From Desulfobacteraceae bacterium (GTDB lineage: Bacteria > Desulfobacterota > Desulfobacteria > Desulfobacterales > UBA5852), in NCBI GenBank assembly GCA_014237395.1, contig JABZFP010000019.1:64756-128755 (forward strand): a stretch of DNA of 64,000 nt, in the 5' to 3' direction. Below are positions 13,534 to 57,199 of this stretch, one piece after another. The notes beneath the pieces are model-generated. The model had not been told where the DNA came from, did not search any database, and saw only the letters and a list, made by a program, of their open reading frames with translations. Every line of letters begins with the position of its first letter. Position 1 is the first letter of the stretch. The translations under genes and the position numbers were made by a program.

Positions 13534-13594
13534 AGCGACATGCGGTGAGTGTTCGATATAAGTTTCTGTTACTGCGATTGAACGAGGGTTCACT

Positions 13595-14902: not shown

Positions 14903-14903
14903 C

Positions 14904-22962: not shown

Positions 22963-23368
22963 CGTCGAATCCTTGCTGAAGTTCTGCCCAATGTCGGGCA
23001 ATGATATGTCATCGTGCCTTGTCGTCTTGCATCGTCGAGGTGATGCCGTTTCCCCTATCGAATGATGGATTGGTGGTATTGATGGGGGCCTTTTGACCTG
23101 CCTTTCCGGTTCACCATCTGCCATGTGAATTTAATGCATCGTCGCATAATAGCAATGAAAAATGGTGCGACGCACTGAAAATATGCTCAAGTCTCAAGCA
23201 ATTGTGCCCGAAATAGAGCTTTGCCATTTCGCTATCTCCAATGGTCGGTCCGAGGGCGATGGTCAACGAATGTTGAATTTTGAACCATCGACGTCGCTTG
23301 ACTAAGCCGCGAATTTGGGATGAAATAAAGTGCCACATTGCGTTGAAAAGGTTTTTAAGGAGTCCGAA

Positions 23369-25276
23369 ATGGATATCAATGTTTGCTGCTCCCAAAAAGT
23401 GGTCTCGGCCGAGGCGGCCATTGCACGGATCAAGCGGGGTAGCCGTGTTTTTATTGGTACCGGATGCGGTGAGCCCCAGCATCTGATCCGGGCCATGGTT
23501 AAAAATGAACAGCTGCAGGATATCATGCTTTACCAGATGATGTCTTCCACCTTTGCGGATTACGTGGATGATCCGGCCTTTGTGAATCGATTCAATCTCA
23601 AGCTGTTTTTCATCAGCAAGGCCATGCGAAAAGCGGCTTTTGAGGGAAAAATAGACTACATTCCGGCCTACCTGTCGAAAATTCCACGACTATTTTCCAG
23701 TCATCGCATTGGTTTGGATGTGGCCTTGGTGCAGGTCAGTCCACCGGATCACTTTGGGTATTGCAGCTTAGGGGTATCGGTCGATATCACGCGCTCGGCC
23801 ATGGAACATGCCCAACTGGTCATTGCCCAGGTCAATTCTTCAATGCCCCGAACGTGGGGTGACAGTTTTGTGCATGTGGACGAAATCGATTACTTGGTTC
23901 CGCAAGATGAAGCCCTTGTCGAAACCATGACCTATCTCGAAGACAATCAAATCTCAATGCGAATCGGGCATTTCGTTGCGCAACTGGTGGAGGACGGGGC
24001 GACGTTGCAAATTGGTTTCGGGTATTTGCCCAATGCCATATTGCGCTACCTGGACCAGAAACACGATCTTGGCATTCATACCCAGCTTATCACGGATGGT
24101 TTGTTGCCGTTGTTTGAAAAGGGCGTCATCACCAACAAAAAGAAAACCCTGCTTCCCGGTCGGGTCGTCGCATCCTTGTGTATGGGGACCGAAAGGCTAT
24201 ATCGTTTCGTCGACAATAATCCGGCTTTCTATTTCCGATCATCAGAATTTGTAAACGATCCTACCGTCATCGCCCGTAACGACAATCTTATTTCAATCAG
24301 TAGCGCCCTCGAAGTTGATCTGACGGGGCAGGTTTGCTCGGATTCAATGGGACAGTTGTTTTACAGCGGCATCGGGGACCAGGTAGATTTTCTGCGGGGG
24401 AGTGCCATGTCGAAGGGCGGGTTTTCGATTATTGCCATGCCATCAACCGCGTGTAACGGGAATGTTTCCCGGATCGTTCCTTATCTCAGCGAGGGCGCAG
24501 GGGTGGCGACCACGCGCGCGGATGTGAATTTTGTGGTGACGGAATACGGGATTGCCGAACTGCAGGGAAAGAGCATATTTCAACGCGTGATGGAGTTGAC
24601 GCAGATCGCTCACCCGAAATTTCGGGACCAGCTAATCCAGACCGCAAAAAACCGACATTACATTTTTTCGGATCAACTGCCGCCGGCACAAGAAGATCTC
24701 CTGTTTCTCGAAGGATATAAAACAACATTGGAGCTTAAAAGCGGTAAAACACTGCATTTTAGACCGTTGTTGCCGTCGGATGAATTCGCCTATCGAAATT
24801 TTTTTTACTCGCTCCAAGAGGATACCATTTATTATCGGTTTTTCTATCAGATGAAGTTGTTTTCACACGAGGTTATCCAGAAACAATGGGCCAGCGTCGA
24901 CTATCGCAAAAACATGTCCATGATCGGGCTGGTTCAGAAAGCAGGACATCAGGAAATTGTCGCCATCGGGACGTACGCCCAAGAAGACGATACCAACGCC
25001 GAAGTGGCGTTCGTGGTCCGTGAGGATTTTCAGGGAATGGGAATTGCATCCTATCTTCTTGAAATCCTGGAAGGAATTGCCAGGGAGAATGATTATCGGC
25101 GATTTACGGCCACTGTATTGAAAGACAATCAAGCCATGTTGAATGTTTTTCGTAAACATTACCCAAATGCGCATATGACCATTACCGGCGGGAGCGAAGT
25201 GTCCGTTGTAATGGAATTCGATCCTGATAGGCCCCATGCGACCAACATGTCCACCGAGCCCCCTGCCAGGGAATAA
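23369..25276 (+). CDS. Acetyl-CoA hydrolase/transferase family protein fused to a C-terminal GNAT acetyltransferase domain
   Basis: AAGGAG RBS. The N-terminus (SAEAAIARIKRGSRVFIGTGCGEPQHL) and the middle block (GIGDQVDFLRGS) are typical of acetyl-CoA hydrolase/CoA-transferases. The C-terminal about 170 aa carry the GNAT motif VVREDFQGMGIASYLLE. Confidence 0.85.
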   Translation: MDINVCCSQKVVSAEAAIARIKRGSRVFIGTGCGEPQHLIRAMVKNEQLQDIMLYQMMSSTFADYVDDPAFVNRFNLKLFFISKAMRKAAFEGKIDYIPAYLSKIPRLFSSHRIGLDVALVQVSPPDHFGYCSLGVSVDITRSAMEHAQLVIAQVNSSMPRTWGDSFVHVDEIDYLVPQDEALVETMTYLEDNQISMRIGHFVAQLVEDGATLQIGFGYLPNAILRYLDQKHDLGIHTQLITDGLLPLFEKGVITNKKKTLLPGRVVASLCMGTERLYRFVDNNPAFYFRSSEFVNDPTVIARNDNLISISSALEVDLTGQVCSDSMGQLFYSGIGDQVDFLRGSAMSKGGFSIIAMPSTACNGNVSRIVPYLSEGAGVATTRADVNFVVTEYGIAELQGKSIFQRVMELTQIAHPKFRDQLIQTAKNRHYIFSDQLPPAQEDLLFLEGYKTTLELKSGKTLHFRPLLPSDEFAYRNFFYSLQEDTIYYRFFYQMKLFSHEVIQKQWASVDYRKNMSMIGLVQKAGHQEIVAIGTYAQEDDTNAEVAFVVREDFQGMGIASYLLEILEGIARENDYRRFTATVLKDNQAMLNVFRKHYPNAHMTITGGSEVSVVMEFDPDRPHATNMSTEPPARE

Positions 25277-25644
25277 AGAATGGACCGATTGGTATGAAGC
25301 AGATTGCCCCTGTGTTTTCAGGGATATCCAGCAGAGGGTTTTGAGTTTTTCCTTGATAAAACAGTATTTTTTCTGCTATTTATGAAAAGTTATCATTCAT
25401 CGGGGCGTTTGTGGCGGCATAAAAATCGGGCAACGATGCGCTTGCGACATTACCGTATAAACCCTCAGTGGCGGCATTCACCTAAACGGGCTTGGGGCTG
25501 GGATGACCCATGGGGTGATGGAATTTACGATGATAAGCTTCCATCAGCTTAATATGATTATAAAATATTGCCGATAGACGATCATTTGACATGATGTAAA
25601 GACGGTATGCGCTCGACCTAAATATATTCAGGGAGGTATTTCAA

Positions 25645-26049
25645 TTGTCTTATACGCTTGGCCAGAAACAGCTTGATAGTATTGATGAAATTCTTCAGAC
25701 CGATCTGGTCGACATTGGCGTCCATTGCGTTTTCCTCATCGATATGTCGGGCAATATCATTGCCAGTCTTGATGATGGAGAGAATAAACACGATATTTAT
25801 TCCCTGGCGGCACTGGCAGCCGGTAATTTCGGGGCGGTAAGCGCAATGGCCAAAATCGTGGGGGAAGGTGAGTTTTCCCTGCTGTTTCATAAAGGGAAAA
25901 AAGAGAATATTCATTTCAGCAAGGTTCTCACGGAATTTTTGCTGATCACGCTTTTTGGCAACGATCTTTCATTGGGCTTCCTTCGATTGAAAGTTGCTGA
26001 ATCCGTAGAAAAAATCAAAAAAATATTGGAACCTATCCACACCCCATAA
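25645..26049 (+). CDS. mglB: MglB (Roadblock/LC7 family GTPase-activating protein)
   Basis: TTG start with a GGGAGG RBS. CVFLIDMSGNIIASL...SLAALAAGNFGAVSAMAKIVGEGEF..LLFHKGKKENIHF...LSLGFLRLKV aligns block for block with Myxococcus MglB as I remember it (VVFLVDKNGQLISS...SLASLTAGNVAAMGGLAKLIGENEF..QFHEG...TSLGLVRLRI). Confidence 0.9.
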   Translation: MSYTLGQKQLDSIDEILQTDLVDIGVHCVFLIDMSGNIIASLDDGENKHDIYSLAALAAGNFGAVSAMAKIVGEGEFSLLFHKGKKENIHFSKVLTEFLLITLFGNDLSLGFLRLKVAESVEKIKKILEPIHTP

Positions 26050-26109
26050 TCGCCAGCTGGCCACGGGTGTTTTAATGATCATCGACTGAAGACGATAGGT
26101 GATATTTCA

Positions 26110-26715
26110 ATGGCATTTGTAAATTTGAAAAAGAAGGAAGTCCAAGTAAAAATCGTCTACTATGGACCGGGCCGTGGCGGTAAGACCACCAACCTCGAAT
26201 ATATCTACAACAAGTTCAACGAGCGCATTCAAACTGAGATGGTCACCGTTAAAACGCACGGGGATCGGACGTTGTTTTTTGACTTTCTCCCCATCGATAT
26301 CGGGAAAATCAATGGATATACAGCCAAGATGCAATTGTACACCGTACCTGGACAGGTAAAATACAATGCAACGCGCCGTCTCGTTCTGAGAGGTGCGGAT
26401 GGCATTGTATTTGTGGCGGACTCGATGGCGGTCCGAAGAGAAAAAAATATCCTTTCATTAAAAAATTTACATGAAAATCTTAAGAACTATAAAAAAAGCA
26501 TCTTTGCCATCCCGCTGGTATTTCAATACAACAAAGTCGATCTCACGGAGCAGGGAATTCCCCTGCTACCCTTTGCAACGATGGAGAAGGACCTCAACAG
26601 CCAACTGAAACGTCCGGCCTTTGAGGCCAGTGCCGTGACCGGTACAAACGTGGTTTCGACCCTCAAAAAAATTATCACCATGACCATGGCCTCTATCAAG
26701 GATGAATTAAAATAG
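26110..26715 (+). CDS. mglA: MglA family Ras-like small GTPase
   Basis: KIVYYGPGRGGKTTNLEYIY (P-loop, nt 26164-26187), switch I DRTLFFDFLP, MglA-specific switch II LYTVPGQV, GADGIVFVADS, G4 QYNKVDL. Near-colinear with M. xanthus MglA from memory. Immediately downstream of mglB, as in Myxococcus. Confidence 0.93.
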   Translation: MAFVNLKKKEVQVKIVYYGPGRGGKTTNLEYIYNKFNERIQTEMVTVKTHGDRTLFFDFLPIDIGKINGYTAKMQLYTVPGQVKYNATRRLVLRGADGIVFVADSMAVRREKNILSLKNLHENLKNYKKSIFAIPLVFQYNKVDLTEQGIPLLPFATMEKDLNSQLKRPAFEASAVTGTNVVSTLKKIITMTMASIKDELK

Positions 26716-26718
26716 GAG

Positions 26719-27423
26719 ATGTCTGTGAACAACGACGCCAAAAAAAGCAAAGTTGACAGCGATCTGGAAAACCGACTCGACACGCTTTTTGATGATGACG
26801 ATCAGGCGGAAAAACCCCTTGTTAGTCATGGTCCCTCAGAAGATCCATTGGATGAATTAAAGTCATTGGTGATGTCCATCGAGTGGGAAATTACGGACGA
26901 CGTGATGGCGCGTTTTATCTCTCAGATCGATTTACTCAAAACACGCTTTGAGGAAGATCGAATTTTAGTCATGTTTCTTCAATTGCTGGGCTCTTTGGGA
27001 CTTTACGTAAAAACAAATAAAGGCAAAGCACATCCTATCTCGTTCAAGCTCCTTAACTCCGTCTATAATAGCTTTGAAACTGCCGTGTCACCGGGGAAAA
27101 TTTCACCTTCCGAAAAGAAAAAATTGTTGTATGTCGAGTTGAACAAATACAAAGAGTTAAAAGAGCAAATTGATGCTACCCGTGGTGGCGAAACCGAACC
27201 ACCGCATGGTCCTGCCGCGCCAGTTGGGTTGGCAACCGGCCAGGAAAAAAAGGATCGTGCCTCACGCGAAGCTGCTGCAACGGGCAATCCTTCATCGGCC
27301 AGCGCTATCGTGACCCAGAAACATTTCGATGAGGTCATGGACGCCTTTAAGTCTCTGCTCAGGAAGGAACTCAATAGCATCCGTGAAGACATAGCGCGTC
27401 TGGCAAAAAAAAATAGGACATGA
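26719..27423 (+). CDS. Hypothetical protein (acidic N-terminus, helical core, coiled C-terminus)
   Basis: 234-aa ORF starting 3 nt after mglA. No family recognised. The start could instead be GTG 26725, which has better spacing to the AGGAG at 26714-26718. Confidence 0.7.
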   Translation: MSVNNDAKKSKVDSDLENRLDTLFDDDDQAEKPLVSHGPSEDPLDELKSLVMSIEWEITDDVMARFISQIDLLKTRFEEDRILVMFLQLLGSLGLYVKTNKGKAHPISFKLLNSVYNSFETAVSPGKISPSEKKKLLYVELNKYKELKEQIDATRGGETEPPHGPAAPVGLATGQEKKDRASREAAATGNPSSASAIVTQKHFDEVMDAFKSLLRKELNSIREDIARLAKKNRT

Positions 27424-27524
27424 ATGTTCCGAGCGGTTTAGGGAGAGCCCGTGGTAAGCGGGTGCTTGCGCCATTGGCCGACGATCGCATACGAATTCGG
27501 TAAAAAATTTGGGGGAGGTAAGCG

Positions 27525-27995
27525 ATGGATTTGTCGTCCGGTGATATTTCGGAACTCGTCTTCAAACCCGTTGTACGTGACGATCTGGGTAACTTTTCTC
27601 TTGACGGCCATATGTTAAGCGTTCTCATGGCATTGGATGGGAAAAGCACGATCGGGAAGGTTGCCCAACAATCGGGTCTGAACATGGCGACCATGCGGGA
27701 TGCCACAAAAAAACTGGTTGAATTGAAGCTAATCGAAAGAATTGAAGGTTCCGGAAGTGTCCTGGACCATGATTTTATATCATTTCTGATTTCTGAATTA
27801 TCACTTGCCATCGGTCCTTTAGGCGAGGTGATTGTAGAGGATGGCGTTGAAGACCTCGGTTTCACAAAAGCCAATTTTCCCACGCATCGTGCTGCGGAAC
27901 TGGTCAATTTACTTGCGCAAGAAATTCAGAGAGATGAAAAGCGCACTGAATTTAAGCAGCGCATGGTGAAGAAAATACGAGAGAAAAGATACTGA
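27525..27995 (+). CDS. Hypothetical protein with N-terminal winged-helix-like segment
   Basis: GGAGG RBS. LSVLMALDGKSTIGKVAQQSGLNMATMRDATKKLVELKLIERIEG looks like a wHTH (MarR-like or DUF742/CvnC-like). The C-terminal half is unassigned. Confidence 0.7.
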   Translation: MDLSSGDISELVFKPVVRDDLGNFSLDGHMLSVLMALDGKSTIGKVAQQSGLNMATMRDATKKLVELKLIERIEGSGSVLDHDFISFLISELSLAIGPLGEVIVEDGVEDLGFTKANFPTHRAAELVNLLAQEIQRDEKRTEFKQRMVKKIREKRY

Positions 27996-28134
27996 GTCGA
28001 TCAACGAGGAAACGCAAAGCATTAGGCTGATTTTATCCGTTCGACCATGTTTCTGAGATGAATGGTTTGAGCGTAATTACCGGCTATTGAGATATGCTAG
28101 CAAACTGGCGATATCGCAGACAAGGAGTGCGGCT

Positions 28135-29490
28135 ATGATCGTTATTTGTGAAGAATGTGGCAAAAAATACAAAATCGACCCCGGGAAAATCAAGGGGGAA
28201 CAAGCCCGCTTTAAATGCAAAGCCTGTTCTCACATCATCACCGTGAATAAGGTTGAAAACAGGCGCGAACCGGAACCGACTGTGGAACCCGAGACCATGG
28301 ATTCTGCTGTTGCTGATTCCACCGAGGTGCCGGAAGAAACCATCGATAAATCCGAGCCGCCTTCCCAGGTCGTTGAACCATCAGCCCCTCCTGTGGCCGA
28401 CCGCATTGATCGTCGTAAAAAGAAAGCGGGCATGGGGCTGACCACCAAGGTGATTCTTCTTATGCTGCTTGTTAGTCTGCTGCCGGGAACGATTTATTTT
28501 ATTCTTTCGTTTAAGCAGGCCAATGACCGTATCGTCAGTGATACAACTCAGATGGGCATGCAAACCGCCGGGGTGCTCGCCGATGAAGTCGATGAGTGGC
28601 TTGATAAAAACATCCGTGTCCTTAACACCGTGGCGCAAATGCCGGGTATTCAATCAATGAATCGTTTTGAACAGGAAATTCTTTTGCAAACGGTTCAGAA
28701 AGAATATCCTTGGATGTATCTTGTTTTTACGACGGATATCAATGGGATGAATGTGGCCCGAAATGATGGGAAAGAATTAAAAGATTACTCGGATCGCCAA
28801 TACGTCCAGGATATTACTTCAGGAAAAGACCTCACCTGGCAAAATTTGATTGGTAAAACATCGAAACAACCCGCGTTGGTTATTGCGGTGCCTATCCGGA
28901 AAAACAATCAGACCATCGGGGTGATGGCCGCGGCCATGACACGTGATGCGATCAGCCAGCGAATTGCAAATTGGCGCCAGGGAAAAACAGGATACGCATT
29001 TCTGGTCGATCAATACGGGAAGGTTGTGTCCCATCAATTGAAAGAGTTCGTTGAGGAACAAAAGGATCTAAGCAATCATCCGCTGGTCAAGGCCGCTAAT
29101 GCCAATAAGAATAGCATGATTGAATTTAAAAATGACAATGGGCGTGATGAGATCGGTTTCTCCAAAACAACCCAACTGGGATGGGCGCTTGCGATCCAAC
29201 AGGAAAAAAATGAAGCATTTGCCATTCTCAAAGAATCGCAAATGTTCGCTTTCGCTTTGATGGGCGCAACTTTTATCGTTGTCCTTATCATTGCCTATAT
29301 CGCAAGCCGCGCAATTGTTACACCAATACGCAAATTGACGGATGCGGCCAACCGCATCAGCGTCGGCGAACTCGGTGTTGAAATTGAAAACAAGTCCAAG
29401 GATGAAATCGGCGACCTCGCAGAGGCCATTACGAGAATGCAAGACAGCATAAGGTTGTCCATTGAAAGGCTTAGACGTCGGCGAAGATAG
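28135..29490 (+). CDS. Membrane sensor: MJ0042-type zinc ribbon + TM + Cache-like periplasmic domain + TM + HAMP, no output domain
   Basis: AAGGAG RBS with ATG 28135. Domains in order:
- Zn ribbon MIVICEECGKKYKIDPGKIKGEQARFKCKACSHIITV.
- P/E-rich linker.
- TM1 VILLMLLVSLLPGTIYFIL.
- About 230-aa extracytoplasmic region with a Cache-like pattern (YLVFTTDINGMNVARND...YSDRQYV...IAVPI...GYAFLVDQYGKVVSH).
- TM2 FAFALMGATFIVVLIIAYIA.
- HAMP IVTPIRKLTDAANRISVGELGVEIENKSKDEIGDLAEAITRMQDSI.
The stop follows 12 aa after HAMP. Confidence 0.85.
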   Translation: MIVICEECGKKYKIDPGKIKGEQARFKCKACSHIITVNKVENRREPEPTVEPETMDSAVADSTEVPEETIDKSEPPSQVVEPSAPPVADRIDRRKKKAGMGLTTKVILLMLLVSLLPGTIYFILSFKQANDRIVSDTTQMGMQTAGVLADEVDEWLDKNIRVLNTVAQMPGIQSMNRFEQEILLQTVQKEYPWMYLVFTTDINGMNVARNDGKELKDYSDRQYVQDITSGKDLTWQNLIGKTSKQPALVIAVPIRKNNQTIGVMAAAMTRDAISQRIANWRQGKTGYAFLVDQYGKVVSHQLKEFVEEQKDLSNHPLVKAANANKNSMIEFKNDNGRDEIGFSKTTQLGWALAIQQEKNEAFAILKESQMFAFALMGATFIVVLIIAYIASRAIVTPIRKLTDAANRISVGELGVEIENKSKDEIGDLAEAITRMQDSIRLSIERLRRRRR

Positions 29491-29597
29491 GACCGGCACC
29501 CTTCCGGAATTTTGGGCTTTCGGGCAGCCGTTGGGAAATATGCCGCCAACCTTTTTGATTACCGAAACTGTCATTTTGATGACTAGGAACGATTTGA

Positions 29598-30599
29598 ATG
29601 TTTGTTACACCTAAAGAAAATCCAATCTTTGCAAGTTTAAATAGCTATTATGTCAACATTGAACGGTTGATTGAACATTTTCAAGGTGAAGTTGGTTGCG
29701 GTGCTTTGTCTTTTAAATCTTCATCTTCGGAAGGGATATTATTTTTTGACAAAGATGAAATCCTCAATGGTATTTACTTTCAAAAAAATAATGAGTTAAC
29801 CGGATCTGAAGCGGTAGATCAACTCATTCAATTATCGGAATCCACCAATTTTTCATTGAATGTCTACCTTCTCCGGGCAGAAGATATTTACTTTTGGTCA
29901 ACGATGCCAAATGCTCAGCGCATCTATCAGGATCTTACCACGGAGTTTACCGATCTTGAAGGTTTGATCAAAAAAATGAAATCTGAAGGACTCACGGGGT
30001 TCATTGAAGTCGTCATCGGAGATGCCAATGGGGAAGGCCTGATCTTCTTCAACAATGGTCAAGTATCGGGAGGATCTTATTCTTGGGGTAGTGGTGACAG
30101 TCGGCGAGAAGAGGAAGATCAAGAAAAACTCGTTCAATTGACGAAAGACCATGGGGGCGCATTTCATGTCAGTCGCATCCCGATGGACGAAAAGAATATC
30201 GCCAGTGAAACAGATGACGATCTGAATCCAGAGGAAGTTTTAGAGAAGCCATCAACACGCATTGTTACGGCAATGGAAGAAATGATGGCTATTTTCGAAC
30301 GAACCGTTAGCGCACAAAAAAACATTCCGTCTGATTTTGCGACATTGTTAAATCGAAAATTTGTTGAGAAGGCTGACCGCTATCCCTTTTTGGATCCTTT
30401 TGCCGCTGAATTCAAATATGCCGAGGAAAAAATTAAGTTCGATGGCGATACGACGGATAAAGAACTGACACAGGGCGTTTTAGAGTCCATTAAGGAGCTT
30501 GCTGCTGAACTAGATGCGTTGACGCAATTCAAAAGCAACCTTGTGACCTGGATGAAAAAATATAGCGAAGAAGTTAAATTATTTGACATAAAGCTTTAA
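29598..30599 (+). CDS. Hypothetical protein with two PATAN/DUF4388-like segments
   Basis: Two internally similar segments: GCGALSFKSSSSEGILFFDKDEILNGIY...GSEAVDQL and LTGFIEVVIGDANGEGLIFFNNGQVSGGSY. Both resemble the TG.L.....G.I.F..G.I pattern of DUF4388. The assignment is from memory and tentative. Confidence 0.7.
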   Translation: MFVTPKENPIFASLNSYYVNIERLIEHFQGEVGCGALSFKSSSSEGILFFDKDEILNGIYFQKNNELTGSEAVDQLIQLSESTNFSLNVYLLRAEDIYFWSTMPNAQRIYQDLTTEFTDLEGLIKKMKSEGLTGFIEVVIGDANGEGLIFFNNGQVSGGSYSWGSGDSRREEEDQEKLVQLTKDHGGAFHVSRIPMDEKNIASETDDDLNPEEVLEKPSTRIVTAMEEMMAIFERTVSAQKNIPSDFATLLNRKFVEKADRYPFLDPFAAEFKYAEEKIKFDGDTTDKELTQGVLESIKELAAELDALTQFKSNLVTWMKKYSEEVKLFDIKL

Positions 30600-30795
30600 C
30601 GAATGCTGCTTGATTATGAATGTGGCTTATTGACCCCCCTAACCGTAATGAATTTATGTTGTCTCAATCGAATATCGCACGAACCTGTGCCGATAAATTT
30701 AGTCCGCGTGATGTAAGATTGAAAAGAGAGTCGTGGATAAATAACATTTCAAGACGCGGTTTAGCCGGAAAAGCAACATATGAGGCCTTGCGGTC

Positions 30796-31827
30796 ATGGA
30801 CAGTGCACATTTTTCAAGCATGGATGCTTCTTTACGCAGCTACTCAGAATTTGTAGGAAATTTACCGGTTGCTGTTTATCGCGTCACGGTTGAAGGTAAA
30901 ATCGCTTTTTGCAACGACCCCTTTGCACGAATTTTTGGTTTTGCATCAGTCAAAGATGCTATCGGTTTTCCGGAAATTAAACTTTATCGCAACAAAAAGG
31001 ATCGCGGCACATTAGTCCAAACCGTTTTGCAACATGGCCTTATTAGCGAAATGCCGGTTCCGTTCTATAAAAGGGACCGCACGCCCATATGGTGCTCGAT
31101 GACCACCAAGGCCGTATTTGATGATGACGGTGAAGTGGTATCTCTCGATGGACTTGTCCGAGATATTTCTGGCGAAATCGAAGAAGCCGATCTCAATGGC
31201 GACTTGATTGGTCGTCTCAATAGAATTGAAGACGCTGTTTTTCTGCTAGATCCACAGGGACGAATTATTCAGGCCAACGAAGTTGCTGCGGAAATTACCG
31301 GATGTCATATCGTCGACCTGCCGGGGCGCTTGTTTTCCGAATTGCTGGCTAACGAAGATCGACAGTTATTCTTTCTTTTCATTGGCGATACCAACCGAAT
31401 TGGTCGAGAAGAAATCATACTGAAATTAAAGGCTGATTCTTCGAAAGATAAATTTATTCGCATTCAAGCCGCCGTCATAAAATCTGAGGGGCGATCCCGG
31501 ACAATAAGTTGCGTTATTAGTGATGTGACGGATCGCGTCAACCAGATAAGGGAAAAAGCAAACAGGGATAAATTCCAAGGCGTACTTGAAATGGCAGGCG
31601 GTGTGGCCCATCGCTTTAACCAGCCATTGACCATTGTGACCAACATCATCAGTGAAATGCTATCCGATATCGATCCCGATGATCGACTCTACGCCAGTAT
31701 TTCCAAAGTACAGGATCAAATACACAAATTAAACGATATTGCCCGGAAAGTGGGCAATATCAAAAAATATGAAGCCATTGACTATGTCGCTGGTATAAAA
31801 ATTGTGGATATTGACCGAGCGTCATAG
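30796..31827 (+). CDS. PAS-PAS-DHp(HisKA-like) protein lacking an HATPase_c domain
   Basis: PAS1 is VAVYRVTVEGKIAFCNDPFARIFGF...IWCSMTTKAVFDDDGEVVSLDGLVRDIS. PAS2 is DAVFLLDPQGRIIQANEVAAEITG. The H-box is EMAGGVAHRFNQPLTIV. The protein then ends about 70 aa later (..KKYEAIDYVAGIKIVDIDRAS) with no N/G1/G2 boxes. Confidence 0.8.
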   Translation: MDSAHFSSMDASLRSYSEFVGNLPVAVYRVTVEGKIAFCNDPFARIFGFASVKDAIGFPEIKLYRNKKDRGTLVQTVLQHGLISEMPVPFYKRDRTPIWCSMTTKAVFDDDGEVVSLDGLVRDISGEIEEADLNGDLIGRLNRIEDAVFLLDPQGRIIQANEVAAEITGCHIVDLPGRLFSELLANEDRQLFFLFIGDTNRIGREEIILKLKADSSKDKFIRIQAAVIKSEGRSRTISCVISDVTDRVNQIREKANRDKFQGVLEMAGGVAHRFNQPLTIVTNIISEMLSDIDPDDRLYASISKVQDQIHKLNDIARKVGNIKKYEAIDYVAGIKIVDIDRAS

Positions 31828-31848
31828 GGCGGCTCAGAGGATTTATCA

Positions 31849-32877
31849 ATGATACGCAATGCTCTTTTTGTAGACGATGACCGCGAAATGCTTCAGGCTT
31901 TGAAAGAAGGCCTGGAAAAATATCGAGAGACCTTCAATGTCGTCCTGGCTGAGGATGGATTTGACGCTGTCAATAAACTCAAAAAGAATTCGATTTCTCT
32001 GGTGGTCACCGATCTCAAAATGCCGAACATGGATGGTTTCAGTTTGCTGGCCCATATCATGGAAACATATCCAGAGATCCCCGTCGTGATCATTACCGGC
32101 TATAGCACCTCCGAGATGAAACGGTTGGCCCAGGAAGGGGGCGCGGTTGGATATATAAGCAAGCCGTTCCTGATTGAAGACTTGGCCAAACACATCATGA
32201 AAACGTTGCGCAAAGAGTCGGACGGGGGAACATTGCACGGTGTTTCTTCCGGTATGTTTTTGCAGTTAATGGAAATGGAAGAAAGAACCTGCACGATTCG
32301 ATTGGTGGATAAGGCCAGCAAAAAAGGCGGTGTTCTTTTTTTCAGGGAAGGCGCCTTGTTGGACGCCCGTGTCGGTTCGATACAAGGGATTGAAGCCGCC
32401 TACATAATCTTTTCGTGGGAGGAGGTCACCCTCTCCATCCAGAACGAATGCCCACAGAAAGACAACAAGATCAATAGCGATCTTCAGCCGATTATTTTAG
32501 AAGCCATGCGGCTGAAGGATGAAGCGGATGACAATGAAGACGAAACAATCGAGGGCGACGAAGAAACGATTGAACAAATCACCTTGGATGAAAACCATGC
32601 ATCCCCGATTGAAAGAATCAAGTCGCGCCTGGATATCGAAATTGGAGAACGTTGCGGACTTGAGGATATATACCAAGACAACAGTATGAATGGTTTGGTC
32701 GAAACCCTCTCTGCGTTGGGTAGCGCCTTCAGCTTCGGTGCCATGAGACTTGGTTACATTGATCGAGGGGCGGCAACAGATACGATTTTATTGCCGGGTA
32801 ATCCATCGACCATCATAGCGGTGGACCCGAAATGTCCACGGGATAAAATTATCCAGGTATTGAGCGACACCATTTGA
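31849..32877 (+). CDS. Response regulator: receiver + PATAN/DUF4388 domain + acidic linker + unassigned C-terminal domain
   Basis: The receiver has all key residues: FVDDD, LVVTDLKMPNMDG, VVIITGYS, ISKPF. The DUF4388-like part is GTLHGVSSGMFLQLMEMEERTCTIRLVDKASKKGGVLFFREGALLDARVGSIQGIEAAYIIFSWEEVTL. It is followed by an acidic tract DEADDNEDETIEGDEETIE. Confidence 0.88.
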   Translation: MIRNALFVDDDREMLQALKEGLEKYRETFNVVLAEDGFDAVNKLKKNSISLVVTDLKMPNMDGFSLLAHIMETYPEIPVVIITGYSTSEMKRLAQEGGAVGYISKPFLIEDLAKHIMKTLRKESDGGTLHGVSSGMFLQLMEMEERTCTIRLVDKASKKGGVLFFREGALLDARVGSIQGIEAAYIIFSWEEVTLSIQNECPQKDNKINSDLQPIILEAMRLKDEADDNEDETIEGDEETIEQITLDENHASPIERIKSRLDIEIGERCGLEDIYQDNSMNGLVETLSALGSAFSFGAMRLGYIDRGAATDTILLPGNPSTIIAVDPKCPRDKIIQVLSDTI

Positions 32878-32934
32878 AATTGTTACGATCGTCATGATTG
32901 AATTGAAAAATAGATAGCTTCCGGTGCAAGGTGA

Positions 32935-33294
32935 ATGAAAAATATGAAAGACCTTTTCAATGATGTTATGGATATCAACGGCGTAAAAGGCATTGTATTG
33001 CTTTCAGGAGAAGGTAAAGTCGTTTATGATACGGATGCGAACAACAAGACCAATGCGGGAAAACCATATGCCAACTGGAATAAACTGCTTGTTTCATTAG
33101 GGGATGCGCGGGAGGCCGAATTTTTATTTGAAAAGGGTCGCCTCTATCTTCGAAAAACACATGACGGCTTTATGATCGTACGCATGCAGTTGATTGCATC
33201 CATTGCGATGGTCAAACTAAATTGTGATATTTTATTGCCACAACTTAAAAGTACAGGAAACAGCAAGGGTCTGAAGGGATTTTTTAAGCGCTAA
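32935..33294 (+). CDS. Second Roadblock/LC7-like protein (MglC-like candidate)
   Basis: AAGGTG RBS. 119 aa. INGVKGIVLLSGEGKVVYDT...EAEFLFEKGRLYLRKTHDGFMIVRMQLIASIAMVKL fits the Roadblock alpha-beta-alpha pattern. Much more diverged than the mglB product. Confidence 0.6.
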   Translation: MKNMKDLFNDVMDINGVKGIVLLSGEGKVVYDTDANNKTNAGKPYANWNKLLVSLGDAREAEFLFEKGRLYLRKTHDGFMIVRMQLIASIAMVKLNCDILLPQLKSTGNSKGLKGFFKR

Positions 33295-33432
33295 TCATGT
33301 TATGACGTTGTGTGTCCAGGAAAGTGATTTGGATGCGCGTCAGAACATGGCAATGGACGAGGTTCTAACCCAAATAAAATTATTAAATCCAGGCATTGCG
33401 TAAGCCTGATCCATCTGATTGAGAGTGAACTC

Positions 33433-35814
33433 ATGGCAAAACCGGAACAAACTGTGAAATCAGATCTTGATGCAAAAATAAACGAGGCAGAAGTTTGTCT
33501 TTCGATGGGCCTCTATGATGAAGCATTGTCGATATTTAATCAAGTGATCGATGAATATCCCGATATAGAAGAAGATAAAAAGAAGACCATAACGGAAAAA
33601 ATCGATAGTATCAAAAAAGAATTGGCGGATCAGGAGGTCAGCGAGGCGGGGAGTGTTTCTACTGAAGAAATATCAATGCTTAAAAAGTCACTCTCGGGAC
33701 AGGAAGATGCGCCGGCCATCATCGATAGTGCCTCGGCATTTAAAGATTTAGGGTTATTTGAAGAAGCACTGGCCGAATATGAAAAAATACTGGTATTGGA
33801 TCATCCCCCCGAAAGCGTTGTTCCGGATATTGTCGACTGTCTGCTCAAATTATTTTCTCCCAATGATTTGTTTGATAAAATACACAAAATTGTTGGCGAT
33901 CAACGCTTGGACACCGAAAAACGCGGCGCTTTAAAATTCCATTTCGGGCTAGAAATGGAAAAACGAGATTATCGGGATCTGGCACTTGACTTGTACGAAG
34001 AGGCGGAAAAAGAAACGCCGGATTACCCCGATTTGCAAAAACGCATTGAGACGCTTCGGTCACGACTGTCAAGCGGATCGAAGTATGACTATCTGTTGCG
34101 GCAGAAGCTAGTATCGACGGAACAGCTGCAGAAATCAGCCGCGATGTCGAAACAAACCAGGAAAAGCGTTGAAACCGTTCTCATTGAAAATTTTGGAATC
34201 AACAAAGAGGATATCGGGAAATCGTTTTCACAGTTTTATGGTTGTGCCTTCCGGTCATACGAAGAAGATCTCCAAACGCCATATGAATTGTTAGGCAATC
34301 TTAAAAAAGCCTTTCTTCTGCACGAACAATGGGTTCCCTTGAATTGGGGAAAAGATGGCGTCGTTGTTCTGGTTGCCGATCCCCGCGACCTGAACAAAAC
34401 CGATAACATCAAAGCCTTGATGAAGACCGGTAAAATTAATTTTTGTGTGGCCATTCGAGAAGATATCGAAGCCTATATCAAACGATTCTATGCAACAGAC
34501 CAGTATGGGGATATGTCCCAAGGCAGCGAGGGCCTCGATAATTTCGACGATATCCTTGACGTATCGTTTGAAGAAGAAGAAGATTTAGATGAAGCCATTG
34601 ATGAACTCGATGAAAGTTCCAGTAAGGTCGTAAAGTTAGTGGATCAGTGTCTCATTGCCGCTTATCGAAAAAATGCATCCGATATTCATATCGAACCTTC
34701 ACCGCAGACCAAATCCACCAATATTCGGTTCCGAATGGACGGCGTGTGCCAGGATTACATCAAGGTTCCCAACTCACTCGCTCGCGGCATCATTTCGCGC
34801 ATTAAAATCATGTCAAACCTGGACATTGCGGAACGCCGGTTGCCTCAAGATGGAAAAATCAAGTTCAAACGAAAGGGGATACCGCCCTTTGAACTTCGTG
34901 TGGCAACGTTGCCCACCGCCGGAGGTTTTGAAGACGCCGTGATGCGGATATTGGCTACCGCAGGCGCCATGAAGCTTGAAGATATGGGGTTGAACGACCG
35001 CAACTACAAAGTTTTAACCCAGGCCATCGACAAACCATACGGCTTGATCCTCTGTGTGGGACCCACTGGGTCCGGAAAAACAACAACCCTGCATGCCGCC
35101 CTCGGCCATATCAACAAGCCTGGCATCAAAATATGGACCGCGGAGGATCCGGTTGAAATCACCCAGTTGGGCTTGCGCCAAGTGGAAGCAAAACCCAAAA
35201 TCGGTCTTGATTTTGCACGGATAATGCGCGCTTTTTTGCGTGCTGATCCAGACGTCATCATGATCGGTGAGATGCGTGACGAAGAAACGGCATCCATCGG
35301 CGTGGAGGCATCGCTGACAGGCCACCTTGTATTTTCAACATTGCATACCAATAGTGCACCTGAAACCGTAACGCGTCTGCTGGACATGGGCCTAAACCCG
35401 CTGAACTTTTCAGATGCCTTTTTAGGTGTTCTTGCGCAACGACTTGTCAGGCGACTTTGCTCATGTAAAAAGGAATATCATCCCACGCAGGAGGAGTTTG
35501 ACCAGATTGTCGAAGATTACGGCTCTGAGTATTTTAAACATTCCGGCATCGAATATACCGCTGATTTAAAGATTGCACGTGCTGGCAGTTGCGAAAAATG
35601 TTCCGGAACGGGGTACAAGGGACGTATGGGGATCCACGAACTCATGAATGGCTCCAAAACCATTAAAAAATTGATCAAGCAGGCGGCGCCGACAGATCAA
35701 CTTTTTGCGCAGGCGATCGAGGAGGGGATGTCAACCTTGAAACAAGATGGTATTCACAAAATGTTCAAGGGCGTTACGGACATCGCGGAAGTTAAACGCG
35801 TTTGTATTGTGTAA
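33433..35814 (+). CDS. GspE/PilB-family secretion ATPase with N-terminal TPR-like region and T2SSE_N domain
   Basis: Domains in order:
- aa 1 to about 215: TPR-like helical repeats (GLYDEALSIFNQVIDEYPD, GLFEEALAEYEKILVLD, DLALDLYEEAEKETPDYPD).
- T2SSE_N-like region (LVSTEQLQKSAAMSKQTRKSVETVLIENFGI).
- Acidic linker.
- ATPase core with Walker A GPTGSGKTTT (about nt 35058-35087), Asp box DPDVIMIGEMRD, His box TGHLVFSTLHTN, and a CSC...CEKC tetracysteine. Confidence 0.92.
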   Translation: MAKPEQTVKSDLDAKINEAEVCLSMGLYDEALSIFNQVIDEYPDIEEDKKKTITEKIDSIKKELADQEVSEAGSVSTEEISMLKKSLSGQEDAPAIIDSASAFKDLGLFEEALAEYEKILVLDHPPESVVPDIVDCLLKLFSPNDLFDKIHKIVGDQRLDTEKRGALKFHFGLEMEKRDYRDLALDLYEEAEKETPDYPDLQKRIETLRSRLSSGSKYDYLLRQKLVSTEQLQKSAAMSKQTRKSVETVLIENFGINKEDIGKSFSQFYGCAFRSYEEDLQTPYELLGNLKKAFLLHEQWVPLNWGKDGVVVLVADPRDLNKTDNIKALMKTGKINFCVAIREDIEAYIKRFYATDQYGDMSQGSEGLDNFDDILDVSFEEEEDLDEAIDELDESSSKVVKLVDQCLIAAYRKNASDIHIEPSPQTKSTNIRFRMDGVCQDYIKVPNSLARGIISRIKIMSNLDIAERRLPQDGKIKFKRKGIPPFELRVATLPTAGGFEDAVMRILATAGAMKLEDMGLNDRNYKVLTQAIDKPYGLILCVGPTGSGKTTTLHAALGHINKPGIKIWTAEDPVEITQLGLRQVEAKPKIGLDFARIMRAFLRADPDVIMIGEMRDEETASIGVEASLTGHLVFSTLHTNSAPETVTRLLDMGLNPLNFSDAFLGVLAQRLVRRLCSCKKEYHPTQEEFDQIVEDYGSEYFKHSGIEYTADLKIARAGSCEKCSGTGYKGRMGIHELMNGSKTIKKLIKQAAPTDQLFAQAIEEGMSTLKQDGIHKMFKGVTDIAEVKRVCIV

Positions 35815-35843
35815 TCGATAGGAACGTCATAGCTGCTGAAACG

Positions 35844-35888
35844 GGCGAAGGTATTTTTCATCCTTGAAAAACCTTCGCCATTTTTATT
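35844..35888 (+). terminator. Strong intrinsic terminator closing the mglBA-to-ATPase gene block
   Basis: GGCGAAGG (35844-35851) pairs with CCTTCGCC (35872-35879). An inner TTTTTCA/TGAAAAA pairing extends the stem. Followed by ATTTTTATT. Confidence 0.8.
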
Positions 35889-36005
35889 GAAGCGTATCAC
35901 GGCAACGCGCATCACAATTTTTCCTCTTTGGAAAATACGAAAAGCAGAGATGCGGTCGCAACGGCGATCGCTGAATAAATCCAATCCAGGGCCTAAGCAA
36001 ACACG

Positions 36006-36707
36006 ATGACGCATGTAAATGAGGCGGAAACAGATATCGTATTTGACCAGTGGGAACGTATTCTTCGGAAAGGTGCCGCTTCGTTTGGTTTAATCTTGAC
36101 CGATCAACAGATCAAACATTTTTACGATCATGCCGTCGCCTTGTTGCAATGGTCGAAGAAGATCAACCTTACCGCCATCAAAGATCCACAAAGTGTGGCC
36201 ATCAAACATTTTGTCGATTCATTGGGGCCCGCATCCTTTGCGATCCCCATGCAACGCGTTCTCGATGTCGGCTCGGGCGGCGGGTTTCCCGGTCTGCCCC
36301 TCAAGGTGTGGAATCCATCGCTTGACCTGACCCTGATTGATGCCGTCAGGAAAAAAATAAGCTTTATCCAGCATGTCATTCGCATCCTGAAACTCACGGA
36401 CACACGAGCCATTCATGGACGGATCCAGGATCTGTCGCGCCAGGGCGGTTTCAGGCCATTTGACACAATCCTCTGCCGAGCGTTCAGTGATTTGTCCTTT
36501 ATCGTTACGCATGGGTTGCCCCTGTTGTCAAAAAATGGAAAACTCATTGTGTGGAAAGGCAAGCTGCCGGAAAAAGAAATCGAAGCGGTTCGGTTTCAGT
36601 TTCAAAATGAAAAAAGGGGTCTGGAAATAGAAACTAAACCATACCGATTGCCCATTCTCGATGCTGAGCGAACCATTGTTATCATCACAGCGCATAGGGG
36701 GAAATGA
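36006..36707 (+). CDS. rsmG: 16S rRNA (guanine527-N7)-methyltransferase RsmG
   Basis: LLQWSKKINLTAIKDPQSVAIKHFVDSL and the SAM motif VLDVGSGGGFPGLPLKV are typical of GidB/RsmG. No mnmG is adjacent. Confidence 0.88.
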   Translation: MTHVNEAETDIVFDQWERILRKGAASFGLILTDQQIKHFYDHAVALLQWSKKINLTAIKDPQSVAIKHFVDSLGPASFAIPMQRVLDVGSGGGFPGLPLKVWNPSLDLTLIDAVRKKISFIQHVIRILKLTDTRAIHGRIQDLSRQGGFRPFDTILCRAFSDLSFIVTHGLPLLSKNGKLIVWKGKLPEKEIEAVRFQFQNEKRGLEIETKPYRLPILDAERTIVIITAHRGK

Positions 36708-36710
36708 CGC

Positions 36711-37665
36711 ATTGAAACGGGATCTGCCGATAGAAAATTCCAATAAAAAACCTACCCGTTCTGCGAGAGGGCCAAAGGAAATTTTGGCCCTTTTCACAAA
36801 AGGGTTCTGTATGGGCGCTTCCGACGTGGTTCCCGGGGTCTCGGGAGGCACAATGGCCCTTATTCTCGGCATCTACGAGGAACTCATTCTATCCATTAAA
36901 GCGTTCGACTATGATTGCCTCCGCCTCGTCTTGCGCGGGCGCTTCTCACAACTCATGGATAAGGTGCCTTTGGGCTTTTTATTACCCCTTGGGATGGGCA
37001 TTCTGACGGCCATATTTTCGTTGGCGAGAGGTCTCAGCTGGCTGCTAAACGAATATCCCGTCGCGGTCTGGTCTTTCTTTTTCGGACTCGTTTTGGCATC
37101 GGCCTTTGTGGTCGGGCGTCGTATCGAAAAATGGAACTGGTCCACGCTTCTCGGTATCGTACTTTCGGCTATCGGGGCCTACGTATTGGTTGGCCTCGTG
37201 CCGATCAACACCCCCGAAACCCTTTCATTTATCTATCTCTGTGGGGCGGTGGCCATCTGCGCTATGATTTTACCGGGTATTTCAGGGTCATTTATATTGG
37301 TCCTGCTGGGAAAGTACCAATACGTGCTCGACGCCGTCGGTCGATTGGACGTGGTGGTTTTGGGGGTGTTTACGGCGGGCACGGCAACCGGTATTCTCTT
37401 GTTTGTGCGTCTTCTCAGTTGGCTTTTGAACAAGTATCATCAACTGACCATGGCGGGGTTGACCGGACTCATGATCGGTTCGTTGAGGAAAATCTGGCCC
37501 TGGAAATCCATGACAGAACTTGTCACCAATGATGCGGGAAGTGGTGTAACGTTGGCCCGCAACATGTTGCCCCACCAGATGACCGCGGAGGTTTATGTCG
37601 CAATTGGATTGGCACTGTTGGGGGGGCTTGCGGTTGTATTGCTCCAACGCCTTGCCGAGAAATAA
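36711..37665 (+). CDS. DUF368 family membrane protein
   Basis: KGFCMGASDVVPGVSGGTMALILGIYEEL is the DUF368 signature, and the protein is polytopic. The start is uncertain: I chose TTG 36711 just after the rsmG stop, whereas the ORF-track start 36661 overlaps rsmG. Confidence 0.8.
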
Positions 37666-38871: not shown

Positions 38872-39990
38872 CTATCGAGCATGGTACAAATTGTCTGCAA
38901 AAACGAGCAGTAAACCGCTTAGATTGGGGGACATGACGTTAAATTGAACGCCGATGGCCTGGGCGTCTCCGGCTTCCGTCGCAAGGATCTGTGACCAGAT
39001 AATGGCCCCTCTGATGTTCAGGGTCATGGCGTCGTTTGGCGGGCTCATCATAATTTTGACGGATTTTCCGATAAGCTGCCTCGATTGCGACGGCTGGGCA
39101 TTCCCGTCTAACACGAGACAGGCGCCACCGATGGAGAGATCTCTGGCAAAGCCCGTCAATTTAAGAAGGGGGGTCAATTCATCGACCTCGAATACGTCCA
39201 GGGCGACTCTTACCGGAATCGTATGGCGACGGATTTTGCGGTTGACATGCGGCTTGGGGTTCAGCTTGCGCTGGGATTCGTAAAGGTCCATCACGGCTGG
39301 CCCGATGGACGGAAAACTTTTTCCGATTTCGATAAGATTGTCGCGTGAAATCTTGACCAATTCAACCCGGGTTGCCGTTTCGGTGTAGGATTGAGAGAAT
39401 TGTTCTTTGTCGAAAGGGCAAACGTCTCCAAATATTTCCGCCTCGACACTTTCCAGGAGGTGTTCCTGATGGCTGGATTGACGGACCGACGGGTAGGTCC
39501 GGCGGCGCAGTTGGCCGGAAACAACCATGTACAGATTATTCTCGGGGTCTCCGAATTTCTTGACCATTTTTCCGGGGGGAAGCACAATGCGCTCCAACCG
39601 GGTGATCAAAGCGATAAGCTCGCGAAACGAAAGCCCGGCAAAGAACATGTTGAGGGGGGTCGCCCGGGGATTGTTTTCGATCAGACGATGATAGAATTCT
39701 TTGATGGCTTTGAAGGAGGGTTTGACAATCTGCCATTGGAGCATTTTAGCGACGACCGCTTGCAGTACGAATCCGGATTCGATGAACGAGGCGGCGGTTT
39801 TGTCAAAATATTCCGCAGCGGCCGCAAAGGATTTACGTTTTACCAGCAGATCCGCCAGCGCGCGGTGCAGATGGGGATTCCCCGGGAATATTTTGAGCAT
39901 GCTTTGAAATTCGCCGATTGAGTCGATGGTGATCGATCCATCGATAATCTGGTTGACGATGCTGCTCTGGAGTTTGGCGGGTTCGGTCAA
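38872..39990 (-). CDS. Helical N-domain + cyclic-nucleotide-binding-like domain + PilZ domain protein
   Basis: PilZ motifs RKIRRH (RxxxR) and DLSIGG (DxSxxG). The central beta-roll is CAP-ED-like (KFGDPENNLYMVVSGQL...EIFGDV...TETATRVELVKISRDNL) but has no obvious RS/TA phosphate-binding Arg. The N-terminus is TPR-like. Confidence 0.8.
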   Translation of the reverse strand: MTEPAKLQSSIVNQIIDGSITIDSIGEFQSMLKIFPGNPHLHRALADLLVKRKSFAAAAEYFDKTAASFIESGFVLQAVVAKMLQWQIVKPSFKAIKEFYHRLIENNPRATPLNMFFAGLSFRELIALITRLERIVLPPGKMVKKFGDPENNLYMVVSGQLRRRTYPSVRQSSHQEHLLESVEAEIFGDVCPFDKEQFSQSYTETATRVELVKISRDNLIEIGKSFPSIGPAVMDLYESQRKLNPKPHVNRKIRRHTIPVRVALDVFEVDELTPLLKLTGFARDLSIGGACLVLDGNAQPSQSRQLIGKSVKIMMSPPNDAMTLNIRGAIIWSQILATEAGDAQAIGVQFNVMSPNLSGLLLVFADNLYHAR

Positions 39991-52175: not shown

Positions 52176-52576
52176 AATATGTCAATATTTTGGAATTGTT
52201 TCGCTGGAATTTGCATTTATCAGTTATCGCGATGGATATTTTGTCTCACAAGCGTCAAGAGCGACACCCTTCAAAAATTGCTTTTTCGGTCAGGCATTAT
52301 AGAACAAACTGGATAAACGGCCGCCACCTTCATTGCCGCCGCAAATGTTATGGCCGGCTTGACAACGCAAACCGCGGCGCCATCTTGACCCATTAAGGCT
52401 GTGCCGTCGAGGTGGGCCGTCCATCCGTGCGTCCCTCCGTTTCGGTACCTGCTGCCGACTTCCTTTGGTTTGCTGCCCGTCCTCTGATTTCCTATCGGCA
52501 CGGCCGACCCGCCCGACATCAGGTAACACCGGTTTACATGACGGCCTATTGCCGTAAGAAAAAGGGAGTGACAGCC

Positions 52577-54226: not shown

Positions 54227-54297
54227 GGGGCGCCTTCCCGTCTGGCAGACCCTCTTTTGAGGACAACGTCCATCCTAAAGAAGAAAAGAGCGGTGCA

Positions 54298-55167: not shown

Positions 55168-55243
55168 CGCATAGCCGCATGATGACGAACAGGATAGCAT
55201 GCGGGGGTGTTGCGACATATCCTCGCATAAAGGGAAGCGCCCT

Positions 55244-57187: not shown

Positions 57188-57199
57188 AGGCGATTCACA

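Follow-up and report, generated by a model that had tools for sequence, protein, structure and literature searches.

In Myxococcus, the GTP-bound form of the small Ras-like GTPase MglA binds the three C-terminal tetratricopeptide repeats (TPR) of SgmX (PMC11580455). SgmX brings the pilus extension ATPase PilB to the pole and the pilus machine by a mechanism that is unknown, no direct contact between SgmX and PilB having been detected in a 2024 study (PMC11580455). In cyanobacteria, PATAN domains bind PilB1 in its N-terminal half as well as PilC's N-terminal domain, and they suffice to switch phototaxis (bioRxiv 10.1101/2021.06.11.447907). Neighbourhoods in which MglA or MglB occurs with PATAN proteins were noted earlier (PMC4316618), and the GTPases of the conservons are known to represent MglA group 2 (PMC4316618), M. 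xanthus MglA being placed in MglA group 1. The present analysis concerns a cluster of ten genes at 25645–35814 (+) within a window of 64,000 nucleotides (the whole stretch of DNA analysed) from contig JABZFP010000019.1 of a Desulfobacteraceae bacterium, in which a PilB-like ATPase with a TPR-like N-terminal extension is encoded together with mglB, mglA, a second Roadblock protein and a PATAN response regulator. The components and their pairwise links (MglA-TPR-PilB in Myxococcus, PATAN-PilB in cyanobacteria, MglA/MglB-PATAN neighbourhoods) are known already. In the literature searched, no description was found of the ten-gene cluster or of any PilB paralogue that is fused to TPRs and encoded with mglBA, which is not proof that none exists. 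The ATPase is best explained not as a stray motor but as the enzyme through which a conserved signalling module of the Desulfobacterales acts.

All ten genes lie on the same strand in the order given below. The original prediction was confined to the last two open reading frames (ORFs), which are present at 32935–33294 and 33433–35814. Their adjacency stands, and instead of forming a two-gene unit the pair makes up the 3' end of the ten-gene module.

25645..26049, +, mglB, Roadblock-type GTPase-activating protein, 134 aa (PDB MglB 6h5b; Pfam Robl_LC7)
26110..26715, +, mglA, small Ras-like GTPase, 201 aa (PDB MglA 3t12, 6hjh)
26719..27423, +, g3, uncharacterised, 234 aa, with a conserved core of ~100 aa, a variable linker and a C-terminal helix
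27525..27995, +, DUF8082 protein, 156 aa, with weak winged-helix-like signals (Pfam PF26309)
28087..29490, +, Zn-ribbon-dCache-HAMP membrane sensor lacking an output domain (start may be 28135)
29598..30599, +, g6, uncharacterised, 333 aa, possibly PATAN-like (sub-threshold DUF4388)
30796..31827, +, PAS-PAS protein with a DHp region, lacking an ATP-binding domain (Pfam)
31849..32877, +, REC-PATAN (DUF4388) response regulator, 342 aa (Pfam)
32944..33294, +, g9, second Roadblock/LC7-fold protein, 116 aa (AlphaFold2, Foldseek, hhalign)
33433..34074, +, ATPase residues 1–214, TPR-like helical repeat extension (TPR_14/TPR_2, predicted helices)
34075..34500, +, ATPase residues 215–356, MshEN/N1 domain with degenerate cyclic di-GMP (c-di-GMP) motifs (Pfam MshEN)
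34612..35814 (including the stop codon), +, ATPase residues 394–793, N2 and catalytic domain of a PilB/GspE-family hexameric ATPase

The Myxococcus MglA-SgmX-PilB system resembles this locus in its MglA and MglB GTPase-activating protein (GAP), in a TPR element standing between the GTPase and a PilB-type extension ATPase (an analogy which rests on PMC11580455), and in a second Roadblock paralogue, there MglC, within the polarity module. It differs in that SgmX is a separate protein of 14 TPRs, whereas here ~214 TPR residues are fused to the ATPase, which unlike Myxococcus PilB is a paralogue falling under the PilB equivalog cut-off. In addition, all parts are found here in one cluster, and no RomR-, RomX- or FrzS-type genes were recognised in it. 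With the cyanobacterial regulators PixE, PixG and LsiR, which act on PilB1/PilC, the locus shares the pairing of a PATAN and receiver regulator with a PilB-type ATPase. The cyanobacterial regulators have the order PATAN-REC instead of REC-PATAN, and unlike them the regulator is encoded here beside the ATPase and MglA/MglB, in a non-phototrophic host of the Desulfobacterota.

ATPases of the MshE, PilF and PilB2 type carry the same N1 fold and Pfam family on the same core, whereas both c-di-GMP motifs are lost here. The closest neighbours of the core are unnamed and mostly metagenomic 'orphan' ATPases with the architecture GAF-MshEN-T2SSE, which are similar in length, likewise have an extension of ~200 residues and fall below the same cut-offs. 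Their extension is GAF and not TPR, and the examples examined were not linked to mglA/mglB or PATAN genes. The actinobacterial conservons (CvnA-D) are alike in clustering a membrane sensor, a Roadblock protein, a small helix-turn-helix (HTH)-like protein and an MglA-family GTPase. They differ in having a CvnA-type histidine kinase, which is lacking here, and in lacking a PilB-like ATPase; furthermore, the GTPase described here matches the crystallised MglA of M. xanthus and T. thermophilus and has its own MglB adjacent. A conservon-like system was rejected, there being no HATPase_c domain in the cluster and no DUF742 match for the 156-aa protein at E<=10.

The ATPase and its N-terminal domains

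The ATPase (33433–35814, 793 aa) was matched by Pfam T2SSE over residues 394–789 (1e-113). The type II secretion and type IV pilus ATPase boxes and the tetracysteine site reported from the sequence are all there, namely Walker A (GPTGSGKT), the Asp box, Walker B (DPDVIMIGEMRD), the His box (TGHLVFSTLHTN) and the zinc-site cysteines C676, C678, C720 and C723, with the boxes nearly invariant among 30 relatives. It should be noted that the first cysteine pair (C676-C678, 35458–35466) is spaced CxC in the subclade of the window through a one-residue deletion and CxxC elsewhere in the family, the second pair always being CxxC. A search of the PDB gave M. xanthus PilB (3jc8, E 1.9e-109) and Geobacter PilB (5tsg, 5.9e-107), with GspE and PilF weaker than PilB and PilT far weaker. 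The PilB chains align from residue 215 of the query to its C-terminus and over their own full length (M. xanthus PilB residues 3–557). Because the solved PilBs align in full from residue 215, residues 215–793 are a complete PilB-type ATPase to which residues 1–214 were added. The architecture is that of PilB, with N1(MshEN), N2 and C-terminal domains, the boxes and the four-cysteine site. In a neighbour-joining tree of the core, calculated without bootstrap, a star-like radiation was obtained in which the family forms one tight clade near two distant TPR-type representatives. The tree is too coarse to define a sister group.

The extension itself, which is missing from the PilB chains of the PDB, is TPR-like by both profile and predicted structure, as had been proposed for the first ~215 residues. 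TPR_14 scored 30.8 bits on the isolated N-terminus (cut-off 23.5), TPR_14 and TPR_2 matched the N-termini of 10/10 relatives, and an AlphaFold2 model showed 11 helices across residues 12–212 with a predicted local distance difference test score (pLDDT) of ~80–87. On visual inspection, three TPR motifs were found to fit the consensus (~12–45, 93–126 and 165–198) with less regular hairpins between them. The structural neighbours in a viral library, after the ATPase matches, were TPR, SNAP and Sel1 repeat proteins, whose E-values were weak (~4e-3). The fusion of this region to the ATPase and its position after a second Roadblock-fold gene were both borne out.

Between the extension and the core, a Pfam MshEN match (1e-11) covers residues 278–356, the domain's alpha/beta part; the preceding four-helix part, to which the c-di-GMP site belongs, lies outside the match. 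The site was examined for its two tandem motifs, RLGxx(L)(V/I)xxG(I/F)(L/V)xxxxLxxxLxxQ, and for a relaxed 24-residue form (PMC5013675). When aligned to M. xanthus PilB, the RLG core of the first motif is S-K-Y and the RIG of the second is S-V-E, so that both 24-residue motifs have other residues in place of their Arg and Gly. The relaxed motif was present in 0/70 family members, as was the [RKPN]hGxxhh core, whereas the control PilBs of Myxococcus and Geobacter both match the relaxed motif. The NCBIfam model c-di-GMP_motif (NF053729) scored 17.2 bits against a cut-off of 38. The T2SSE_N/MshEN domain had been put forward as suggestive of c-di-GMP binding, and this suggestion did not survive the motif check. 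Residues S216, Y218, D219, S245, V246 and E247 are invariant in 30 relatives and, because the substituted residues are invariant, the sequences suggest that the MshEN surface may now serve another partner. Encoded 3 kb downstream of the ATPase (38872–39990, −) is a 372-aa protein that combines cyclic-nucleotide-binding and PilZ domains; it is a candidate c-di-GMP receptor near an ATPase lacking a site of its own, and it is syntenic in close relatives only.

Conservation of the cluster among related loci

An N-terminus-specific alignment was scanned against one genome per species (GTDB), which gave 80 loci, nearly all of them labelled as metagenome-assembled genomes (MAGs) of Desulfobacterales, Desulfobacteraceae or Deltaproteobacteria. 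Presence was counted upstream of the ATPase on the same strand, among the loci with enough upstream DNA. By these counts mglA and g3 were each found in 41/42 loci and mglB in 38/40, followed by REC-PATAN (58/62), the Roadblock gene g9 (64/71), the Zn-ribbon-Cache-HAMP sensor (40/46), g6 (44/52), the DUF8082 gene (33/43) and the PAS-PAS-DHp gene (42/57). Chance adjacency of the cluster genes is ruled out by these neighbourhood counts. Gene order was identical in metagenomic contigs whose ATPase is 63–73% identical and whose flanking genes are different. In one reduced locus (L042) the cluster consists of mglB-mglA-g3-ATPase, the remaining gap containing no ORF, and other reduced clusters retain mglB, mglA and g3 and vary in whether the sensor, PATAN and Roadblock genes are present. 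Within single MAGs, apparent second copies were 99% and 86.5% identical, and strain or assembly redundancy is as likely an explanation for them as paralogy.

To place the family among other ATPases, the PilB-like part was compared exhaustively with 1.84 billion cluster representatives. The nearest relatives of the core have 45–52% identity, are mostly ~770 aa long and have a different N-terminal extension of ~200 residues, in which a GAF domain was detected in 32 of the 60 relatives scanned and REC or PilZ in a few. A TPR-type extension was found in only three full-length representatives, namely the family's own, P0195 and P0212. Of the other two, P0195 has 48% core identity and its neighbours, in a rearranged order, are mglB, an MglA-like GTPase, an unknown protein, REC-PATAN and DUF8082; P0212, likewise distant, stands at a contig end beside DUF8082 and a HAMP protein. 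Mgl, PATAN and pilus genes were all missing within 8–10 kb of four non-TPR relatives, of which three are of GAF type and the fourth has an extension that is unclassified. The Mgl linkage tracks the TPR-type N-terminus, the non-TPR sample being small but the contrast clear. The association of mglA with the ATPase, which underlay the original prediction, is upheld in that it was found in 41 of the 42 loci, survives rearrangement at P0195 and is missing near the four non-TPR relatives. At one of the loci of the GAF type (L094, 7494–8351), the ATPase relative is followed by two single-domain PilZ genes, which may represent an alternative c-di-GMP route for ATPases with a degenerate MshEN domain.

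The upstream genes and the surroundings of the cluster

A genuine mglB-mglA pair lies upstream of the ATPase on the same strand. The mglB product matched M. xanthus MglB in the PDB (6h5b, E 1.7e-19) and Pfam Robl_LC7 (27.8 bits, cut-off 23). The MglA protein matched 3t12 and 6hjh over its full length (E ~1e-52, ~57% identity to the crystallised MglAs). It has the P-loop, R53 as the intrinsic Arg finger, Thr78 where Asp would stand and the catalytic Gln82, its cognate MglB is encoded next to it, and the P-loop, R53, T78, Q82 and NKxD are invariant in 42–44 of 44 orthologues. The following gene, g3, could not be assigned to a Pfam family by Pfam and profile comparisons. More than 1000 homologues annotated as 'hypothetical' are found in Desulfobacterales and Desulfatiglans, the JGI label sometimes being H-NS. 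Since g3 always follows mglA, being directly 3' of it in 41/42 loci, and is retained in the smallest clusters, it may encode an MglA partner, for example a guanine nucleotide exchange factor, a co-GAP or an effector.

The second Roadblock gene, g9, was predicted within the 32935 ORF. Its homologues are 115–116 aa long and start at the second Met of that ORF, and an AAGGTG Shine-Dalgarno sequence lies 9 nt 5' of the ATG at 32944. Because of these homologue starts and the position of the Shine-Dalgarno sequence, the true gene is most likely 32944–33294, with a predicted product of 116 aa. Pfam Robl_LC7 (PF03259) gave E=0.03 and 14.5 bits, below the cut-off of 23, with only residues 6–32 covered, and no match was obtained in the NCBIfam scan. 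An AlphaFold2 model built on an alignment of 22 family members (pLDDT 78, predicted template modelling score 0.73) has the topology alpha-beta-beta-alpha-beta-beta-beta-alpha. All of its top 50 Foldseek matches in the PDB are Roadblock/LC7 proteins (TM 0.5–0.7), including archaeal Roadblock, Thermus and Myxococcus MglB, MglC and LAMTOR. By hhalign, the g9 profile aligned with the cluster's own MglB family over 96 columns in register (E 0.0017). Against the PDB, the same profile of 22 members gave only marginal matches to dynein Roadblock, with MglB and MglC both missing at E<=10. The Roadblock fold of g9 is confirmed by the model. The description of g9 as 'MglC-like' holds at the level of this fold only, MglC (7ct3) standing at rank 7 of the Foldseek matches and not ahead of MglB. 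At the end of strand beta-2 (residues 28–31, 33025–33036), the family has a motif [FY]-[DE]-[ST]-[ILV] that resembles, at a similar position, the F25-D26-x-I28 surface of Myxococcus MglC, which has been a target of mutagenesis. MglB has L-I-S-S at this position and the cluster's own MglB has I-I-A-S.

The REC-PATAN protein was matched by Response_reg (92 bits) and DUF4388 (46 bits, cut-off 25) of Pfam. Its receiver keeps D9, D11, D55, T83 and K105, which are all of the phospho-acceptor residues. It combines a PATAN domain with a phosphorylatable receiver in the manner of PatA, with the domain order reversed. For g6, DUF4388 was detected below threshold in 3/11 orthologues (best E 0.0025), and hhalign of g6 against the PATAN region of REC-PATAN gave E 0.011. 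The DUF8082 protein belongs to PF26309 by precomputed Pfam assignment, the local Pfam scan giving only weak HTH matches. Pfam matched Zn_ribbon_4, dCache_1 and HAMP in the sensor (28087–29490), which was called as 451 aa by gene callers in the identical locus L001. Two PAS domains and a weak HisKA were matched in the PAS-PAS-DHp protein, where the H-box His272 and the N, P and L residues are unchanged in 39/39 sequences. Two of the signalling proteins of the cluster therefore appear 'incomplete', the PAS-PAS-DHp protein being without a catalytic ATP-binding domain and the Zn-ribbon-Cache-HAMP sensor without an output domain. In one relative (L004), an HATPase_c-only gene lies just 5' of mglB (1829–2521) and MCP-CheW-CheA genes lie just 3' of the ATPase (12780–15741), which hints at a split kinase and chemosensory input.

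Promoter and terminator scans of 25000–36300 returned sites no more numerous than in shuffled sequence and are uninformative on operon structure. An Rfam search of 23000–37000 detected no RNA family at E<=1. The G+C content is 45.0% over 25645–35814, compared with 55.2% upstream and 57.0% downstream. This dip is also seen in close relatives and is weak or absent in distant ones, the cluster lying below both flanks in 20/32 loci, and it could reflect module transfer or a compositional constraint. The gene rsmG (gidB, 16S rRNA methyltransferase) at 36006–36707 follows the ATPase in most related loci, distant ones included, which is probably lineage synteny rather than function. The large ORFs of the window outside the cluster encode housekeeping and regulatory proteins, including a radical SAM protein, a DNA polymerase III delta subunit and an FMN dehydrogenase. 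A group at 52412–59004 encoding a GAF-PAS-SpoIIE phosphatase, a PAS-sigma-54 activator and an SBP56-type selenium-binding protein is unrelated to the ATPase. The 64-kb window was found to contain neither a prepilin-type N-terminus nor a platform protein or secretin, in agreement with the original prediction that the machine powered by the ATPase is not identifiable locally.

Proposed control of the ATPase

It is proposed, with a probability of roughly 0.55, that the ATPase is a PilB paralogue controlled by MglA/MglB and by PATAN, which acts on a pilus-type platform encoded elsewhere, with MglA-GTP acting on the fused TPR region and PATAN on the N1/MshEN domain. The module would comprise a polarity-type switch (MglA, its GAP MglB and the second Roadblock protein), a sensory or phosphorelay branch (the Cache-HAMP sensor, the PAS-PAS-DHp protein and the phosphorylatable REC-PATAN) and the remaining parts g3, DUF8082 and g6. 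Its motor would be paralogous to PilB, the extension ATPase of type IVa pili, with a TPR region added at its N-terminus and an MshEN domain that is no longer suited to c-di-GMP. The fused TPR region would be bound directly by MglA-GTP, and the N1/MshEN region by the phosphorylated response regulator through its PATAN domain, as with PilB1 in Synechocystis. Both inputs would then set the time and place of docking of the hexamer on a PilC/PilM-type platform, whose genes would lie elsewhere in the genome, with MglB serving as the off-switch and the second Roadblock protein as an adaptor. Domain content, conserved linkage and motif loss are established by the analysis, whereas the protein contacts, like the identity of the machine that is driven, are what we infer from these observations.

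Several points weigh against this proposal. The ATPase scored 504.7 bits with the PilB equivalog model TIGR02538 (cut-off 675.65) and 467.3 bits with the GspE equivalog model TIGR02533 (cut-off 630.25), and as judged by the equivalog criterion it is not a housekeeping PilB. No platform, pilin or secretin gene, and none for PilM-Q or PilT, was found in the 64-kb window or within +/-10 kb of the related loci examined, and gsp genes are likewise lacking nearby. Reduced clusters without the Roadblock and PATAN genes show these two to be accessories that some lineages can spare. The direct contact between MglA and the TPR region would follow from gene linkage and analogy, and the evidence as a whole is comparative, the relatives all coming from uncultured, metagenome-assembled genomes.

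By analogy with the cyanobacterial regulators, REC-PATAN is no worse a candidate than MglA for the direct gate. It is possible, if rather doubtful, that the phosphorylated REC-PATAN is the direct gate together with a Roadblock partner, that the TPR region binds the platform, a polar landmark or g3, and that MglA and MglB act in parallel without contacting the ATPase. PATAN alone binds the N-terminal half of PilB1 and suffices to switch pilus-based phototaxis, and in this cluster REC-PATAN is encoded two genes 5' of the ATPase (58/62 loci), has the conserved acceptor residues of a phosphorylatable receiver and is accompanied by a sensory branch of Cache-HAMP and PAS-DHp proteins. However, four reduced loci (L042, L077, L081 and L085) keep mglB-mglA-g3-ATPase without REC-PATAN and Roadblock genes, and the Mgl linkage follows the TPR N-terminus and was not found at the GAF-type relatives; both observations speak against REC-PATAN as the direct gate.

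That the motor does not belong to a pilus at all is considered unlikely. The ATPase would then be an 'orphan' PilB/GspE-like member of a large sensor-fused radiation, serving some other process under MglA control, such as another secretion or fibre system or a purely regulatory ATPase cycle. This would suit the nearest relatives, which are mostly GAF-MshEN-T2SSE proteins of ~770 aa, which when examined were encoded away from pilus and secretion genes and which, like the family representative, remain under the PilB and GspE equivalog cut-offs (0/10 relatives tested reach either). It is at odds with the intact PilB architecture, boxes and zinc site and with the best solved matches being true PilBs. 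To our knowledge, every characterised member of the PilB/GspE ATPase family works on a PilC/GspF-type platform. Gating of an MshE-like ATPase by c-di-GMP through the T2SSE_N/MshEN domain is very unlikely from the sequences. The Pfam MshEN match and the cyclic-nucleotide-binding/PilZ gene 3 kb downstream would speak for it, but the match is restricted to the alpha/beta part of the domain, the RLG and RIG cores have given way to invariant S-K-Y and S-V-E replacements in a family where 70/70 members have lost the motif that control PilBs retain, and the NCBIfam motif model gave only 17 bits against 38; on the motif loss and this low score such gating was rejected.

Under the proposal of an MglA/MglB- and PATAN-controlled PilB paralogue, a stronger version may be put forward as a tentative possibility, in which a Ras-like GTPase directly gates a PilB-family ATPase through a TPR adaptor within the motor polypeptide. 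The fusion would then be a 'Rosetta stone', revealing that in Myxococcus the MglA-SgmX complex delivers PilB to the pilus machine by direct TPR-PilB coupling, and the cluster a compact and transferable polarity-to-motor module.

The cluster brings TPR, a PilB paralogue and MglA together genetically, along with mglB, a second Roadblock protein and a PATAN regulator, and the GTPase may control this type of motor far more directly than in Myxococcus. It also provides a small and defined set of proteins for testing direct contacts between GTPase and motor and between PATAN and motor. A whole clade of PilB-like ATPases has exchanged c-di-GMP sensing for other N-terminal inputs (GAF, TPR), and polarity control of the MglA type may extend beyond Myxococcota, Bdellovibrio and Thermus to the sulfate-reducing Desulfobacterales.

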